Positions 28,590-35,328 of a DNA stretch of 64,000 nt are shown here, piece after piece. The notes beneath the pieces are model-generated. The model saw only the letters and a program-made list of their open reading frames with translations. It had not been told where the DNA came from and did no database searches. Numbering within the stretch: the first letter of the stretch is position 1; each line of letters starts with the position of its first letter. Source of the stretch: Promethearchaeota archaeon (GTDB lineage Archaea; Asgardarchaeota; Lokiarchaeia; Sigyniarchaeales; SOKP01); the NCBI GenBank assembly GCA_048937405.1, contig JBHLNF010000009.1, positions 96,001 to 160,000 of the forward strand, read 5' to 3'. The translations under genes and the position numbers were made by a program.

Positions 28590-28734
28590 GATTATTAATT
28601 AATATTTCTTTTTTTATTCTCGTTCTAAAAGAGGTAAAATTTAATTATAAAGAAAGCGATTTTATAAAAATTAAAAGTATCGTATTAATTATTGAAAAAT
28701 AATTTGAAAATTGTAATATTTGAGGTTTATAATA

Positions 28735-29301
28735 ATGAAAGTGGTATTATTTAATGGAAGTCCCAGAAAAGAAGGAAATACATATCATTGCTTAAATGTT
28801 GTTATGGATGAATTAAAAGCAGCTGGAATAGAATGTGATTATAATTGGATTGGGATGGAAAAAATGCAAGGGTGTACTGCTTGCATGAAATGTAGAGAAA
28901 ATGGTGATCAAAAATGCGTACTAACTGGAGATAAAATGAATGACTATATTGAAAAGATGATAAATTCTGATGGTATAATAATTGGTTCTCCTACATATTA
29001 TTCTAATTTAACAACAAACACAAAAGCATTAATTGAACGTTGCGGATTTGCTGCTGGAAGAAAATTAAAACACAAAGTAGGAGCAGCAGTTATAGCAGTT
29101 AGGAGGGCTGGAGCAAACCATGCTTTTTCAAGTATAAACTATTTCTTTCTTATAAACCAGATGTTTGTTGTTGGTTCTAGTTATTGGAATGTAGGAATTG
29201 GAAGACAAGCGGGAGAAGTTTTAGATGATGAAGAAGGTATAGAAACATTTGAAAATTTAGGCAAGAACTTTGCTTTTTTGCTAGAAAAACTGAAAAAATA
29301 A
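28735..29301 (+). CDS. Iron-sulfur flavoprotein (Isf; flavodoxin-like)
   Basis: NGSPRKEGNT, CTACMKC..C, GSPTY, RRAG, SSYWN; GAGGT RBS before ATG 28735. Confidence 0.9.
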   Translation: MKVVLFNGSPRKEGNTYHCLNVVMDELKAAGIECDYNWIGMEKMQGCTACMKCRENGDQKCVLTGDKMNDYIEKMINSDGIIIGSPTYYSNLTTNTKALIERCGFAAGRKLKHKVGAAVIAVRRAGANHAFSSINYFFLINQMFVVGSSYWNVGIGRQAGEVLDDEEGIETFENLGKNFAFLLEKLKK

Positions 29302-30733: not shown

Positions 30734-31315
30734 CTATTTTTTTTTCCAATAAGTAAAGTATACTATTATAAGTATAATCAACGCAGGAATTCCGAGTAAA
30801 ATTAATATCCACATTAAGGTTAAAAACCATGAATAAACCCAATATCCCCATGGCTTATTCCCAATTGGTGTATTATAATTTCCATCTGCAGCAATATAAA
30901 TACAATAAGCTATAAACATAAAGAAACCAAAACCACCACCCCCACCCCAATTTTGCTTTCTATGCTTTTCCTTTTTGTTTCTTGCTTTAAACCACTCTTG
31001 ATCTTCTGTGGGTAACTTACTCCACCATATGTATCCTCCTAAGCCAAAAAATAATGCTGCCGGAGCGCCCACAAATAGTAATTCCGCTAATATTAATTGT
31101 ATAAAGAATCCAACGATATAATTTAGTGTCCAATTTCCAATAAAGCCTGTTTGTGGGTCAACGAAAGGATTTACCTCTATTATCCAAAACAATGTCAAGA
31201 TAGCTCCTATAATTAAAAAAACAGCTGCTACAATCATCACTATAAAAGCATTAGTATGTTTCTTTATTGTTTCTTTCCAGAATTGTTCTTCACTTATATC
31301 ATTACTATTTTCCAT
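30734..31315 (-). CDS. Hypothetical membrane protein (4 TM)
   Basis: Four hydrophobic segments; GGGGG motif. Confidence 0.75.
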   Translation of the reverse strand: MENSNDISEEQFWKETIKKHTNAFIVMIVAAVFLIIGAILTLFWIIEVNPFVDPQTGFIGNWTLNYIVGFFIQLILAELLFVGAPAALFFGLGGYIWWSKLPTEDQEWFKARNKKEKHRKQNWGGGGGFGFFMFIAYCIYIAADGNYNTPIGNKPWGYWVYSWFLTLMWILILLGIPALIILIIVYFTYWKKK

Positions 31316-31534: not shown

Positions 31535-31999
31535 ATGAATGAAGAAGAAACTTCTGGATTATGCGATAATTCATGTAAACCTGAATCTATTGTTGATGTG
31601 TTTTCTTTAATTAATACTTTAAGTAAGAAATATGAAAAATTAAAGCGAAATAATATTCAGGAATTAGAACTAACACCAGCACAGTATTTTATATTAAGTC
31701 AACTATGGGAATCAGATGGACAACAATTTAAAGAATTAGCAGAAAAATGTGGATGTTCAAGATCCACCATTACTGGGGTGGTAGATACAATGGAAAAAAA
31801 GATGATAGTTACTCGTGAATTACATCCTTCTGATAGGAGAAGCCTACTTGTCAAACTTACAAAAAAGGGTAAAAACTTAAAAAATGAAACACCACCTCTA
31901 GAATCGATCCTTGATGGATGCTGCCCAGAAATTAATGAAGAAGAGATGAAAAAGTTAGGGGAATTACTTCAGAAATTATTAAACTCACTAAAATATTAA
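31535..31999 (+). CDS. Cys-rich MarR-family regulator
   Basis: LTPAQY..L..LW, DRR...LTKKG; CDNSC, CGC and CC clusters. Confidence 0.92.
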   Translation: MNEEETSGLCDNSCKPESIVDVFSLINTLSKKYEKLKRNNIQELELTPAQYFILSQLWESDGQQFKELAEKCGCSRSTITGVVDTMEKKMIVTRELHPSDRRSLLVKLTKKGKNLKNETPPLESILDGCCPEINEEEMKKLGELLQKLLNSLKY

Positions 32000-32078
32000 C
32001 GCTTTAACTTGTCCTCCTCTTAAGTTTTACTTTTGATTATTTTGTTAGGTACTTAATTATACGAAACGAAACATTTAT

Positions 32079-32098
32079 ATAGTTAGGATCCCAACTAT
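32079..32098. promoter_or_regulatory. Palindromic operator overlapping the TATA box
   Basis: atagttaGGATCCcaactat (20 bp, one mismatched pair) abutting tttatata 32074-81; related sites near 32042 and 32120. Confidence 0.7.
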
Positions 32099-32140
32099 CA
32101 ATTATCTAACAATTAAATATTAATGAGGTCCTAATTACTT

Positions 32141-32224
32141 ATGGAAGATAAAGATAAAGAATGTTGTTCTGAAAAACCAAAAAATGATGAAGAGGAATCC
32201 CATTCAAAGGAAGGATGTTGTTAA
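32141..32224 (+). CDS. 27-aa acidic CC/CC micropeptide, putative metal-binding (not in the ORF track)
   Basis: MEDKDKECCSEKPKNDEEESHSKEGCC*; GAGGT RBS at 32125-29; TATA box upstream. Confidence 0.7.
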   Translation: MEDKDKECCSEKPKNDEEESHSKEGCC

Positions 32225-32383
32225 ATTAACAGAATTCAATCAAAAGTAATATTGAAAAAATATAATCTCAAGTTTTTTATTTTTTTTTTGATTTATTCGA
32301 TTGAAATTATAAATTTAGTATGACTGATTGTGAATAAAAATTAAAAAGTAATTATCCAAAATATCAAAATACGATAAATAGGT

Positions 32384-34072
32384 GTGAATAAAATAGCAGT
32401 AGTCTACATGCGTAAATTGGAATTAGAACCTGAGACTTATGAATCAAAATTCACTGAACTTGCAAAAGGTACGAATATCAAAGTTCAGAATTGGATATTA
32501 GAACGAATCAAAGCACCACAAATTATACTCGAAGTAGGGTGCGGTACAGGGACTCTTGCTAAAAAAATGGCCCTAAATGGAAATCAAGTCTTAGCAATTG
32601 ATAAAAACTTACAAATGATCGACACTGCTATGAAAAATTTTCCTTCTGAACCCAACACGAAACTTTTATACCAAATAGGATCTATCACTGATTTACCTGC
32701 TGAAGATAATTCTAAAGATTTGATTGTAAGTACTTTTATGCTTTCAGAACTTAGACCACTTGAACAACAAAATTTTCTGAGAAATGCTTGGAAGGTTTTA
32801 AAACCGAATGGTCGGATGATACTTGCTGCAGAATTTGTCCCTTCAGGGATTTGGAAAATTTTATTTAACATTAAACGTTGGAAATACAAAAAGAAATTAA
32901 GAAGACTCCGACTGCCGAGTACATTTGTAGTCAAATGGTTTTTCAATTATTTAGAGCCCATTGGTTTTAAATTAATGGCAGAAAAAAAATGGAATCATGG
33001 TTCTATTCGAGTTATTGAATTAAAGAAGATTCAGAATGATAATTTAAAAGAACCTGGTTATTATCGTCCTAAGCCTAAAAAGTTTAAAGGAATTCGGGCT
33101 CAAATGAATATTTATCGTTGTATTTTTACAGGACAGGTAGATCACATACCAATTGAGCCAGGGATTTACAAATCGGGGTCTCCTGATATGAATTCGCCTA
33201 TTCTTGTTACTGCTAATTACATTTATACATATATTAAATTAATGCGTGCTCTTAAAGGGATTGATGCTTGGGTATTATGTGTTGACTCAAATGGGATAAA
33301 TGTTTGGTGTGCAGCTCGAGGAAATAATTTTGGAAATAAGCAATTGATTGAAGTTGTAGAAGCAACTGACATCGCAGATGTCTCCAATAAGAAAACATTG
33401 ATTCTTCCTCAACTTTCCGCGGGAGGAGTTGCATCACCACTGATAAAAAGTGAAGCCCCAAATTTCAAATATAATATTCTATTTGGACCTGTATGGGCGA
33501 AAGACATCCCTAAATTTCTAAATGAACGCCCTACCCGAAAACCGGATAAGATGAAATTAGCTAAATTTACGGCTTCTCATCGTTTGCGTGCAGCCATTAC
33601 ACATACTACATTTTTATTACGGAAAATTTTCTTTTGGCCAAGTATTGTTCTAATATTAATTTTTCTTGGACTAAATATGGCAAGTATTATAGATGTGAAT
33701 AAACTATTGTTTATTGGTGAAATCTGGCTATGGGTTATTATAACAAATATATCCATTATGATTTTATTTCCTCTTACAAATTTTACACGAAAATTTATTA
33801 CTAAGGGTATTATTTATGGAGTTATTAACGTCTTTCTCTTAAGTTATATTTCTTGGCTTTTTCATACTTCACTACTTTTGATATTCTGGCAATCATTTTT
33901 TTATTTTTGGCTAGCATTTTTTTCTACTATGTCATATAGTGGGTATACTATGGCAACAAGTCCTCGAGAGATTCAAGATGAATATCCTACTTTCAGTAAA
34001 ATCAATATGATATTATTAATAATTGGCATTATTACTTTAGCTACAGGTTTCATCTTACCCTTGATATTTTAA
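32384..34072 (+). CDS. Class I SAM methyltransferase fused to an HgcA-like corrinoid-binding domain and ~5 TM helices
   Basis: LEVGCGTG, STFMLSEL; PIEPGIY, SPILVTANY, GINVWCAARG, LILPQLSAGGV, FGPVWA; hydrophobic C-terminus. Confidence 0.88.
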   Translation: MNKIAVVYMRKLELEPETYESKFTELAKGTNIKVQNWILERIKAPQIILEVGCGTGTLAKKMALNGNQVLAIDKNLQMIDTAMKNFPSEPNTKLLYQIGSITDLPAEDNSKDLIVSTFMLSELRPLEQQNFLRNAWKVLKPNGRMILAAEFVPSGIWKILFNIKRWKYKKKLRRLRLPSTFVVKWFFNYLEPIGFKLMAEKKWNHGSIRVIELKKIQNDNLKEPGYYRPKPKKFKGIRAQMNIYRCIFTGQVDHIPIEPGIYKSGSPDMNSPILVTANYIYTYIKLMRALKGIDAWVLCVDSNGINVWCAARGNNFGNKQLIEVVEATDIADVSNKKTLILPQLSAGGVASPLIKSEAPNFKYNILFGPVWAKDIPKFLNERPTRKPDKMKLAKFTASHRLRAAITHTTFLLRKIFFWPSIVLILIFLGLNMASIIDVNKLLFIGEIWLWVIITNISIMILFPLTNFTRKFITKGIIYGVINVFLLSYISWLFHTSLLLIFWQSFFYFWLAFFSTMSYSGYTMATSPREIQDEYPTFSKINMILLIIGIITLATGFILPLIF

Positions 34073-34160
34073 AACAAATTAAAATAAATACAATAAAAAA
34101 ATAATATTAATATGAGAAAAAAAGGTGGTTAAAATTACATTAAAATCAAAATCAGTTAAA

Positions 34161-34430
34161 ATGGCAATACTCATTCCAAAAATCTCAATTAATCCTGATT
34201 TATGTACGGGTTGTGGTATTTGTGGAGAAGTTTGTCCTTTTGGGATTCCAACTCCAGATGCAGAAGGGAAATATAGAATCAGTGAACCAGAACGTTGTAC
34301 GGAATGTTCTGCTTGTAAAAAAAATTGTCCTACAATGGCAATTCTCCTGCAAGAACAAAAAGGTTGTGGTTGTTTATGGAATGCACGTAGAGTTTCTAAA
34401 AATCCTCCAAATAACAGTTGTTGTGGATAA
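34161..34430 (+). CDS. HgcB-like 2x[4Fe-4S] ferredoxin with C-terminal Cys tail (upstream GTG at 34125 also possible)
   Basis: CTGCGICGEVCP, CTECSACKKNCP, GCGC, terminal SCCG. Confidence 0.85.
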   Translation: MAILIPKISINPDLCTGCGICGEVCPFGIPTPDAEGKYRISEPERCTECSACKKNCPTMAILLQEQKGCGCLWNARRVSKNPPNNSCCG

Positions 34431-34461: not shown

Positions 34462-35328
34462 TTAATATATAAATGTCTTCTTTTCCTTTTCTAGGAAGCT
34501 TTTCTTGATCAATAAATCCATTTCAGCATTTAACCAACAGAGTTCATCATAAGTACAGCTTGAATTAAACACTTCTCCTGCTTTTTGTTTTATATCTTCA
34601 ATAGAGGGCATATCAAGATTCATTTTCTGAATTTTTTCCGCTAACATCCAACATAAATCATTATAAGAGTATTTATCTAAGGAGAGAAAATAAGCTGCTT
34701 CTCTTATTTGCGTTTGTAGGTCAGGTTCTTCTGATGTTATCTCAATAAATTTTGGTTTAATTTTTCTATGTTCTTTAATTTGTTGTAACCAAGCTTCTAC
34801 ATCTGAAATTTCCTCAGTTTGAATTTGATCAGATGATTCTTCAAACTTAATGAATTTAACAGCACTATAGCTTTCATTTTCTCCTTTTTTTGCTTCCAAG
34901 ATTCTATGATTTTTGATCTGTTGGAACCATTGTACTATTCTCTCTTCTGAAATTCCTTCGAACGTAGCAGAATTCACACTCTCAAGTGGTGTCTCAAAAA
35001 CGAATTCAGGTCTCCGCTCTATTGTTTTGCCAGGAATATGTCCTTTTCTAAGATCATGTATCATCGCTAAAAAGGCACCATATTCTCTCTTTTGTTTCAT
35101 GATAAGTATTTTTGCAGATCCTCCTCTCTTTTTGTCAATATTCCTTGCAATCTCTGCAGTAATATCTTTTTTATTTTTTTTTACTTCTAATCCAACCCAA
35201 ATATAAATTGTATTTTTTTCCTCATCATCAACAAGATAAACATCATTTTCATTGAAAGGTAAACTGTCTATCTTTATCAATTCCCCATTATCGGCAATAC
35301 TGAATAGTTGCATTATTTTCACTCTCAA
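34462..35328 (-). CDS. One-domain gelsolin with C-terminal domain X (1DGelX-type)
   Basis: FNENDVYLVD...IYIWVG gelsolin core; duplicated YxxLCWxxAE domain. Confidence 0.85.
   Translation of the reverse strand: MRVKIMQLFSIADNGELIKIDSLPFNENDVYLVDDEEKNTIYIWVGLEVKKNKKDITAEIARNIDKKRGGSAKILIMKQKREYGAFLAMIHDLRKGHIPGKTIERRPEFVFETPLESVNSATFEGISEERIVQWFQQIKNHRILEAKKGENESYSAVKFIKFEESSDQIQTEEISDVEAWLQQIKEHRKIKPKFIEITSEEPDLQTQIREAAYFLSLDKYSYNDLCWMLAEKIQKMNLDMPSIEDIKQKAGEVFNSSCTYDELCWLNAEMDLLIKKSFLEKEKKTFIY

Follow-up and report, generated by a model that had tools for sequence, protein, structure and literature searches.

A stretch of 64,000 nucleotides from a Promethearchaeota archaeon (Asgardarchaeota; Lokiarchaeia; contig JBHLNF010000009.1 of assembly GCA_048937405.1, positions 96,001 to 160,000 of the forward strand), here called the window, contains a 27-residue open reading frame (ORF) with two vicinal cysteine pairs. 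It lies between a gene for a MarR-family regulator and two genes related to the HgcA/HgcB pair. The ORF was noticed in a reading of the sequence alone, which took it for the first gene behind an operator and suggested a metallothionein- or ArsD-like chelator or chaperone. The host genome has a size of 4.47 Mb and a GC content of 28%. The gene, its regulator and its signals are, in order of position:

31535..31999, forward strand: MarR-family regulator gene, 154 amino acids (Pfam MarR, E 9e-17).
32045..32056, no strand: putative operator-like imperfect palindrome TTAGGTACTTAA, upstream of the main operator, read from the sequence.
32074..32081, forward strand: TATA-like box TTTATATA; 23 of the 26 aligned copies have TTTAWATA between -60 and -77 relative to the ATG.
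32080..32097, no strand: palindromic operator TAGTTAGGATCCCAACTA, the presumed MarR site, 18 bp and near-perfect, overlapping the 3' end of the TATA box.
32125..32129, forward strand: Shine-Dalgarno-like GAGGT, its last base 11 nt 5' of the ATG.
32141..32224, forward strand: micropeptide gene, 27 amino acids, MEDKDKECCSEKPKNDEEESHSKEGCC, an ATG ORF; net acidic; residues 8-9 form one Cys pair and residues 26-27, at the C-terminus, the other.
32273..32289, forward strand: T6-A-T10 tract after the peptide cistron, a probable archaeal oligo-T terminator or partial terminator.

The ORF is identical in sequence to the one given in the sequence-only reading, and the TATA box, the GAGGT and the T-tract named there were all located, the tract at 32273-32289 instead of about 32274-32289. 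The encoded peptide has 10 acidic and 5 basic residues, no aromatic residue and 4 Cys among its 27 residues (15%). At least two CC pairs are present in 7 of the 16,344 ATG ORFs of 20-45 amino acids in the host genome. The pattern is therefore rare but not unique in the genome, and since it is no proof by itself, conservation has to decide.

Within 1.5 kb upstream of orthologues of the fusion gene that follows the peptide, the small ORF was found at 9 of 19 related loci, and one further locus has a degenerate copy. A profile built from nine copies matched 30 of the 54 genomes of the genus at E<=1. The profile of the larger alignment (A2, 26 copies) matched 32 of the 153 genomes of the order and, at E<=0.01, 32 of the 399 genomes of the phylum. 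These 32 are divided into the window's genome, 28 of the 53 others in the genus and 3 of the 42 in the sister genus; the remaining 303 genomes of the phylum, from 83 genera, gave no match. Searched against 1.84 billion protein representatives, the A2 profile found seven matches, all of 25-37 amino acids and with the same Cys pairs. The exact 27-residue sequence of the window is missing from about 15 billion predicted proteins, where one of five family members looked up was present, a nameless protein of 32 amino acids. The 27-residue forms are shorter than the usual gene-calling length.

Among the 26 copies in A2, which are related to each other and were gathered by a profile that rewards Cys pairs, the ATG and both Cys pairs are invariant (26/26). 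In addition, K4 and one column each of E, K and S are at least 90% conserved, the remainder being variable and acidic, and columns are on average 47% identical. Of the 104 codon cells in the four Cys columns, 94 have TGT and 10 TGC, with zero replacements. The Cys pairs of related genomes do carry the synonymous changes that the sequence-only reading had proposed to look for, in the form of TGT/TGC swaps only. Summed over pairs, the proportion of synonymous differences (pS) is 0.46 and that of nonsynonymous differences (pN) 0.25, a pN/pS of 0.54, and the median ratio of nonsynonymous to synonymous substitution rates (dN/dS) is 0.51 (293 of 325 pairs). The mean pairwise difference at codon positions 1, 2 and 3 is 0.28, 0.19 and 0.38.

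The gaps follow the reading frame as well, as all length differences in A2 are whole codons; in the non-coding sequence past the gene, gaps measure 1, 5 and 12 bases. The frame of the micropeptide is the sole one open in all 26 copies, with an ORF in the +1 frame in 13 and an antisense ORF in 3. Between -18 and -5, 21 of 26 copies have a Shine-Dalgarno-like 4-mer, compared with 8.5% of 20,000 random ATGs in the host genome. Judged from these sequence comparisons, the ORF behaves as a genuine protein-coding gene under selection, predicted to encode a cytoplasmic peptide of 25-38 residues. The lack of conservation that would have spoken against it was not found: the ORF, the ATG, the Shine-Dalgarno-like motif and both Cys pairs are kept across the 32 genomes.

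Other explanations of the ORF were considered and dropped. A chance ORF is ruled out by conservation, and an antisense or +1-frame gene by the fact that those frames are open in only 3 and 13 of the 26 copies. A fragment of a larger protein is ruled out by the length of the library matches, all seven of which have 25-37 amino acids. Read-through of a selenoprotein was rejected as well; the stops in the loci inspected are all TAA, except one TGA (L047).

With the family alignment as input, AlphaFold2 gave a predicted local distance difference test score (pLDDT) of 54.5 and no helix, and the peptide is predicted to be intrinsically disordered. Between 14 and 21 residues separate the Cys pairs, varying among copies. 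Three aligned copies have an extra CC five residues past the first pair, CCC is found in three family copies, and the variants reach 5-6 Cys. Variable pair spacing together with added Cys suggests a flexible ligand-binding peptide and not a folded domain or a recognition motif, and the gain of Cys in variants is typical of metal-binding peptides. In G118 (L064:5332-5442) and in the library protein P0002, the first Cys-pair unit is duplicated internally, giving three pairs.

No member of a described family was recognised. Against Pfam, none of the 26 members had a match better than E 7.4, and against NCBIfam the only matches were insignificant (Hpn, 2/26 at E 0.34; geopeptide TIGR04229, 1/26 at E 0.29). 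Membership in a metallothionein- or ArsD-like family, as proposed in the sequence-only reading, is thus not borne out by any significant Pfam or NCBIfam match. The best matches in the ESM Atlas are unnamed clusters at 0.84-0.86, below the level at which they would be more than a lead. Literature searches, largely at the level of abstracts, found no description of such a peptide.

The closest genomic partner of the peptide is its regulator. A search of 134 genomes of the family identified an orthologue of the MarR protein (at least 62% identity) in 29 genomes, including that of the window, and such a peptide is encoded downstream of it in all 29, of which 28 were detected by the profile. The profile-detected peptides lie 140-250 nt past the MarR gene on the same strand, except in G008, where the gap is about 1.2 kb. 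The 29th genome (G022) encodes a variant at this position, in which a CC pair is N-terminal and the C-terminal motif is C-x-C-x-C. No such ORF is found at five loci whose MarR genes are paralogues (40-57% identity). The MarR orthologues have a mean column identity of 80%, far more than the peptide. Five cysteines are invariant in 25 of 25 unique orthologues and in alignment A4, namely C14, C72-x-C74 and the vicinal C129-C130 in GCCP, and a second Cys adjoins C14 in most orthologues.

The operator is present with at most two mismatches in 23 of 26 copies; the other three are loci of the ArsR type described below. The peptide is indeed the first gene behind the operator, and operator and TATA box occur together in 23 of 26 copies. 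With at most one mismatch, the operator is a single site in the whole 4.47-Mb genome, so this promoter looks like the only target of the repressor. A block, TTAGGAtcTTAA, equivalent to the upstream palindrome is visible in loci of the MarR type. The upstream palindrome and the main operator flank the TATA box.

In four genomes the MarR gene is replaced by an ArsR/SmtB regulator, which is transcribed divergently and matches NCBIfam HTH_metalloreg with 76.7 bits (cut-off 55). These ArsR-type loci comprise three copies without the MarR operator and the degenerate copy of G003. The CVC motif of the metalloid site is found in 11 of 11 ArsR orthologues. The loci show that the MarR and a canonical metalloid-type ArsR are exchangeable ahead of the same peptide and operon.

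The T-tract behind the peptide gene is another recurring feature. A run of at least seven T lies within 100 nt downstream of the stop in 19 of 26 copies, compared with 8.3% of random 100-nt windows, and it is located 45-66 nt past the stop in most copies. In the host genome, T runs of at least 10 occur 0.067 times per kb per strand. The T-rich block is the best-conserved part of 17 aligned downstream regions; 7 of 26 copies have no run of at least seven T. Between the stop codon and the T-tract, RNAalifold found no conserved pair in 17 sequences, the putative transcript of the window folds no better than shuffled sequences (z +1.08), and an Rfam scan of 31900-32500 gave only a chance-level match to a plant microRNA (E 0.83).

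Archaeal RNA polymerase stops at oligo-T without a hairpin, which makes a full or partial terminator the best reading of the tract. Such a terminator would leave the peptide message more abundant than the enzyme message. The tract could also be part of a second promoter, as a TATA-like word precedes it in many loci. Of the two roles given to the tract in the sequence-only reading, stronger expression of the peptide than of the enzyme agrees with its conservation; a classical attenuator is not supported, given the lack of conserved pairing and the 7 of 26 copies without a long run. The short ORF and the T-tract of an attenuation leader are present, and no conserved pairing for mutually exclusive hairpins was found.

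Behind the tract, two genes follow on the same strand:

32384..34072, forward strand: class I S-adenosylmethionine methyltransferase fused to an HgcA-like corrinoid and membrane protein (Pfam Methyltransf_11 and CdhD; cap helix NVWCAARG).
34125..34430, forward strand: HgcB-like 2x[4Fe-4S] ferredoxin (Pfam Fer4; CGC motif; C-terminal CCG).

The fusion gene probably starts at GTG 32384 and not at ATG 32408, as the encoded IAVVYMRKLE is kept in relatives. Relatives of the fusion protein at the level of the order begin with MAVVYM. Against NCBIfam, the fusion protein scores 129.9 bits for CpaM (cut-off 180), 172.6 for HgcA (275) and 181.4 for the HgcAB-like model (285), and the ferredoxin scores 54.9 bits for HgcB (cut-off 99). 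As all these scores are under the curated cut-offs, the genes are related to the HgcA/HgcB pair but are not members of it. The hgcA-like gene that the sequence-only reading saw downstream is thus present, yet only as a relative of HgcA. A terminal Cys pair is found in 9-10 of 11 HgcB-like orthologues, and orthologues of the fusion gene are present in about 30 of 41 related genomes.

Across 33 peptide-bearing genomes, the peptide stands ahead of the fusion gene and the HgcB-like gene in 22. The arrangements are:

MarR, peptide, fusion gene (the arrangement of the window): 11 genomes.
MarR, peptide, flavoprotein, fusion gene: 7 genomes.
ArsR type: 4 genomes, one of them with the order flavoprotein, peptide, fusion gene (L050).
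Fusion gene not nearby: 11 genomes.

As 11 of the 33 genomes have the peptide away from an hgcA-like gene, its tightest partner is the regulator and not the enzyme. The flavoprotein belongs to the FMN_red family and is directly beside the peptide in 16 of the 33 genomes. Its four-Cys motif is invariant in 17 of 17 aligned family members, and its best NCBIfam matches, which are weak, are to NAD(P)H:quinone oxidoreductase/WrbA. In another genus of the order, the pair of fusion gene and ferredoxin gene is preceded by genes for ArsR and for an arsenite pump of the ACR3 type (TIGR00832, 298.1 bits, cut-off 282.8). Three genomes of the sister genus have other neighbours beside the peptide. One of this genus, G134 (L065:2543-2982), has the peptide followed by an HgcB-like ferredoxin and a flavin reductase on a short contig without an hgcA-like gene.

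Taken together, we favour the view that the gene encodes an inducible dithiol peptide by which soft metal(loid)s are chelated or passed on, and give it a probability of about 0.5. A role as chelator or chaperone is suggested by the context of the gene: the Cys-rich MarR or CVC-type ArsR, the HgcAB-like operon, and ACR3 in relatives. The metal(loid) part is supported by the 22 of 33 genomes in which the peptide precedes the HgcAB-like operon, itself linked to ACR3 in relatives. The invariant vicinal pair of the MarR (GCCP), the CC end of the HgcB-like protein and the Cys gained by some variants are in line with it. In the mechanism that we propose, the Cys-rich MarR would repress the promoter by occupying the palindrome fused to the TATA box, with ArsR in its place in four genomes. 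Induction would begin when a soft metal(loid) that reacts with thiols, for example As(III), methylarsenite or Hg(II), modifies the cysteines of the regulator and derepresses the promoter. The peptide would then be made in bulk, and the oligo-T tract would curb read-through into the enzyme genes. Each Cys pair could take up a two-coordinate species such as methylarsenite or Hg(II); alternatively, As(III) could be held by three of the four thiols. The peptide may then buffer the metal(loid), or exchange it with the HgcB-like CC tail of the methyltransferase-HgcA-like corrinoid system.

A more specific version, which we regard as quite unlikely, is that the peptide is a trans-acting dithiol carrier that supplies the HgcB-like CC tail with As(III) or Hg(II), removes the more toxic methylated product (methylarsenite or methylmercury), and, by holding this ligand, tunes the induction of the CC-bearing MarR. 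If true, the "unknown source" and the "exogenous thiolate" that are missing from the picture of metal(loid) methylation by corrinoid (HgcAB-type) systems would be this carrier, and it would form a new class of archaeal metallochaperone of fewer than 30 residues that acts like the CC/CU arms of HgcA and HgcB.

Several observations weigh against a metal(loid) peptide. The enzyme can do without the peptide, as about half of the genus carries a fusion operon that lacks it and has either ArsR alone or no regulator. Conversely, 11 of the 33 genomes hold the MarR-peptide pair away from hgcA-like or ars genes. In eight genomes of the genus the order is an aldehyde:ferredoxin oxidoreductase gene, MarR, the peptide, in some cases the flavoprotein, and an endonuclease IV-like gene, where two of these loci were covered by the family scan and the others were assigned from size and position. 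A setting with an Isf/WrbA-like flavoprotein and endonuclease IV fits a module for oxidative or electrophile stress at least as well. The best named NCBIfam relative of the MarR protein is OhrR, a peroxide sensor. Four Cys are few for a metallothionein-type cluster of the SmtA type. The case from conservation also has its limits: pN/pS rises to 0.66 without the Cys columns, i.e. selection on the other residues is moderate, and the copies were collected by a profile that favours Cys pairs. Degenerate copies occur too, such as that of G003 without the C-terminal half and the second copy of G051 (L035:2356-2433), which lies between the flavoprotein and the fusion gene and ends with YCR and not CC. 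The function is inferred, the family is confined to two sister genera, and a third of the occurrences are away from metal(loid) genes.

From these observations the strongest rival is drawn, a peptide for thiol stress without a role for metals. Here the MarR would sense oxidation or alkylation of its Cys, as in regulators of the OhrR/YodB/QsrR type, and the dithiol would quench oxidants, quinones and aldehydes together with the Isf/WrbA-like flavoprotein. We consider this unlikely. The match of the MarR to OhrR has an E-value of 7.6e-16 but only 58 bits, far under the cut-off of 200. A quinone-reductase-like flavoprotein with four invariant Cys adjoins the peptide in 16 of 33 genomes, and in the eight genomes without an hgcA-like or ars gene there is an endonuclease IV-like gene beside it and the aldehyde:ferredoxin oxidoreductase gene near it; however, 22 of 33 genomes have the peptide ahead of the HgcAB-like operon, which is next to ACR3 in relatives, and a CVC-bearing ArsR drives the same peptide in four genomes. 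Vicinal disulfides are strained, and no gene for a thiol-disulfide reductase is found beside the peptide. The strict link to one group of regulators could instead mean that the peptide is a partner of the repressor, sharing or competing for its inducer through metal-bridged Cys pairs in a feedback, as in the transfer of copper from CopZ to CopY. The coupling to one MarR orthologue group (29/29, and none at five paralogous loci), the invariant vicinal Cys pairs in both proteins, and an operator unique in the genome, so that the promoter is the only evident target of the repressor, would all agree with this. We hold it improbable, as four genomes pair the peptide with ArsR and lack an orthologous MarR, and in L050 the peptide sits inside the operon, after the flavoprotein.

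The peptide might also have no function of its own. In that case the ORF would be a cis-acting leader, where translation of the Cys codons, or translation itself, sets termination at the T-tract. It is the first short ORF behind the promoter, has paired codons for one amino acid, and is followed in most copies by the conserved tract 45-66 nt after the stop. The lack of conserved alternative pairing, and a fold no better than that of shuffled sequences, both noted above, speak against a leader, and the T-tract is beyond the reach of a ribosome terminating at the stop codon. Further, 7 of 26 copies lack T>=7, the copy in L050 lies between two genes, the downstream genes are unrelated to cysteine supply, and at the protein level the non-Cys positions K4, E, K and S are at least 90% conserved and variants add cysteines. 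On balance a leader has only a slim chance of being correct. The chance is smaller again, and very small, for a precursor or substrate like those of ribosomally synthesised and post-translationally modified peptides (RiPPs), for instance one that is S-methylated by the corrinoid methyltransferase. Its position directly 5' of the methyltransferase-corrinoid fusion in 11 genomes, and a size and Cys content like those of some precursors, would suit such a role, but 11 of 33 genomes have no such enzyme nearby, the scanned neighbours include neither a radical SAM enzyme nor a protease or exporter, and the geopeptide match (1/26, E 0.29) is not significant.

Compared with known systems, the metal(loid)-binding peptide that we favour would resemble metallothioneins and phytochelatins in general character: small, free of aromatics, rich in Cys and acidic residues, inducible via metal-sensing repressors and acting in bulk. 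However, metallothioneins of the SmtA/BmtA type typically have at least 9 Cys in CxC, CxxC and CC clusters, while the peptide has only four and no family match. Phytochelatins are not made ribosomally, whereas the peptide is encoded for ribosomal synthesis. With ArsD and the two-cysteine ArsR sensors, in which vicinal cysteines bind trivalent arsenicals, it shares the CC pairs and the ArsR/ACR3-linked surroundings. The Cys pairs of ArsD are C12-C13, C112-C113 and C119-C120. ArsD is a folded, thioredoxin-like protein of about 120 amino acids with a C12-C13-C18 site that docks on the ArsA ATPase, in contrast to a peptide of 25-38 amino acids that is predicted to be disordered and has no sequence match to it, and no ArsA-like gene was found among the scanned neighbours of the loci examined.

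The HMA chaperones (MerP, CopZ) differ as well, with a ferredoxin-like fold of about 70 amino acids and a GMxCxxC motif; CxxC is absent from the 26 members, and Pfam HMA was not matched. RiPP precursors such as SCIFF and geopeptide are recognised by a family match together with a maturase, protease or exporter; the peptide has neither, and the families detected in the scanned neighbours include no radical SAM enzyme or peptidase. The CPxCG zinc-finger micro-proteins of haloarchaea are an example of genes for fewer than 50 amino acids that gene callers overlooked and whose products bind metal by Cys. They have CxxC knuckles that fold round Zn, whereas the Cys of the peptide stand in CC pairs, CxxC is absent, and no fold is predicted.

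In form, the peptide is like the CC tail at the C-terminus of HgcB and the arm with CC/CU at the N-terminus of HgcA, which are also short, flexible and disordered, with a vicinal Cys pair at or near a terminus as the only conserved feature. For both segments, uptake of Hg(II) and its transfer to or from the corrinoid have been proposed, and the HgcB-like protein encoded beside the peptide has such a tail. Those segments are parts of a ferredoxin or a corrinoid protein, whereas the peptide is a free-standing product with two pairs and with its own promoter, operator and T-tract, and it also occurs at loci without an HgcA-like or HgcB-like gene. In PMC7305189, the terminal Cys pair of HgcB is proposed to take Hg(II) "from an unknown source". 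Haft and Gwadz (bioRxiv 10.1101/2022.07.06.499078) describe how CC and CU motifs recur, both on an arm at the N-terminus of HgcA and at the C-terminus of HgcB. Binding of methylarsenite requires only two cysteines, according to PMC11868830. In 10.1101/2022.10.17.512643 and PMC10349881, hgcAB in a bacterium is reported to be under the control of ArsR and responsive to arsenic.

The gene is a case of what is lost when standard gene callers drop genes of fewer than 30 codons: a selected gene that is served by a repressor and an operator of its own and opens an operon whose enzymes are relatives of the mercury-methylation machinery. Metal-binding Cys peptides encoded by genes are already known; this one is unrelated to them in sequence, far smaller, built on vicinal pairs, archaeal and equipped with a dedicated MarR. 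If the peptide does carry metal(loid)s, no dedicated metallochaperone known would be smaller, and it would give a handle on how Asgard archaea of sediments deal with arsenic or mercury. Should its thiols serve redox chemistry instead, the peptide would still be a low-molecular-weight thiol of a new, gene-encoded kind for archaea. The finding bears on the question of the metal donor for HgcAB-type enzymes. With 27 residues the peptide is cheap to synthesise; how it binds As and Hg, whether it transfers them to HgcB-like tails and how it affects the complex of MarR and operator can all be tested directly.

Some features of the surroundings were observed in addition. Divergent from the MarR gene, the window encodes a 193-amino-acid membrane protein with a glycine-rich loop (30734-31315, reverse strand) and no significant family match (DUF4064, E 0.007). 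At loci where MarR and the peptide are absent this gene abuts the fusion gene, so the MarR-peptide module looks like an insert between conserved neighbours. Further upstream, at 28720-29301 on the forward strand, a flavoprotein of the FMN_red family is encoded 3 kb from the peptide, with the four-Cys motif of the flavoprotein that follows the peptide in other genomes and with an AlkZ-like DNA glycosylase gene between them. On the other side, convergent with the hgcB-like gene, there is a gene for a gelsolin-repeat protein (34462-35328, reverse strand; Pfam E 1.9e-5), whose position is kept in most loci of the genus and whose presence is in line with an Asgard archaeon.

A split paralogue of the fusion gene, with a CpaM-like methyltransferase ORF followed by an HgcA-like fragment, is located on the same contig outside the window (G000:C27:222160-223085). 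It is 29-35% identical to the fusion, and similar split pairs occur in several relatives. At two ArsR loci without the CC...CC peptide (L015:1275-1415 and L023:2275-2415), the space between arsR and the fusion gene holds a different ORF, of 46 amino acids and with one G/A-CC-GG motif; it is conserved in both genomes and may be an analogous small gene. Two relatives of higher GC in the order have a small ORF just 5' of the fusion (L029:3201-3464, reverse strand; L032:2266-2538, forward strand) that looks AbrB/SpoVT-like by eye, which recalls the "antitoxin-like" putative regulator upstream of archaeal hgcA reported in PMC10349881.

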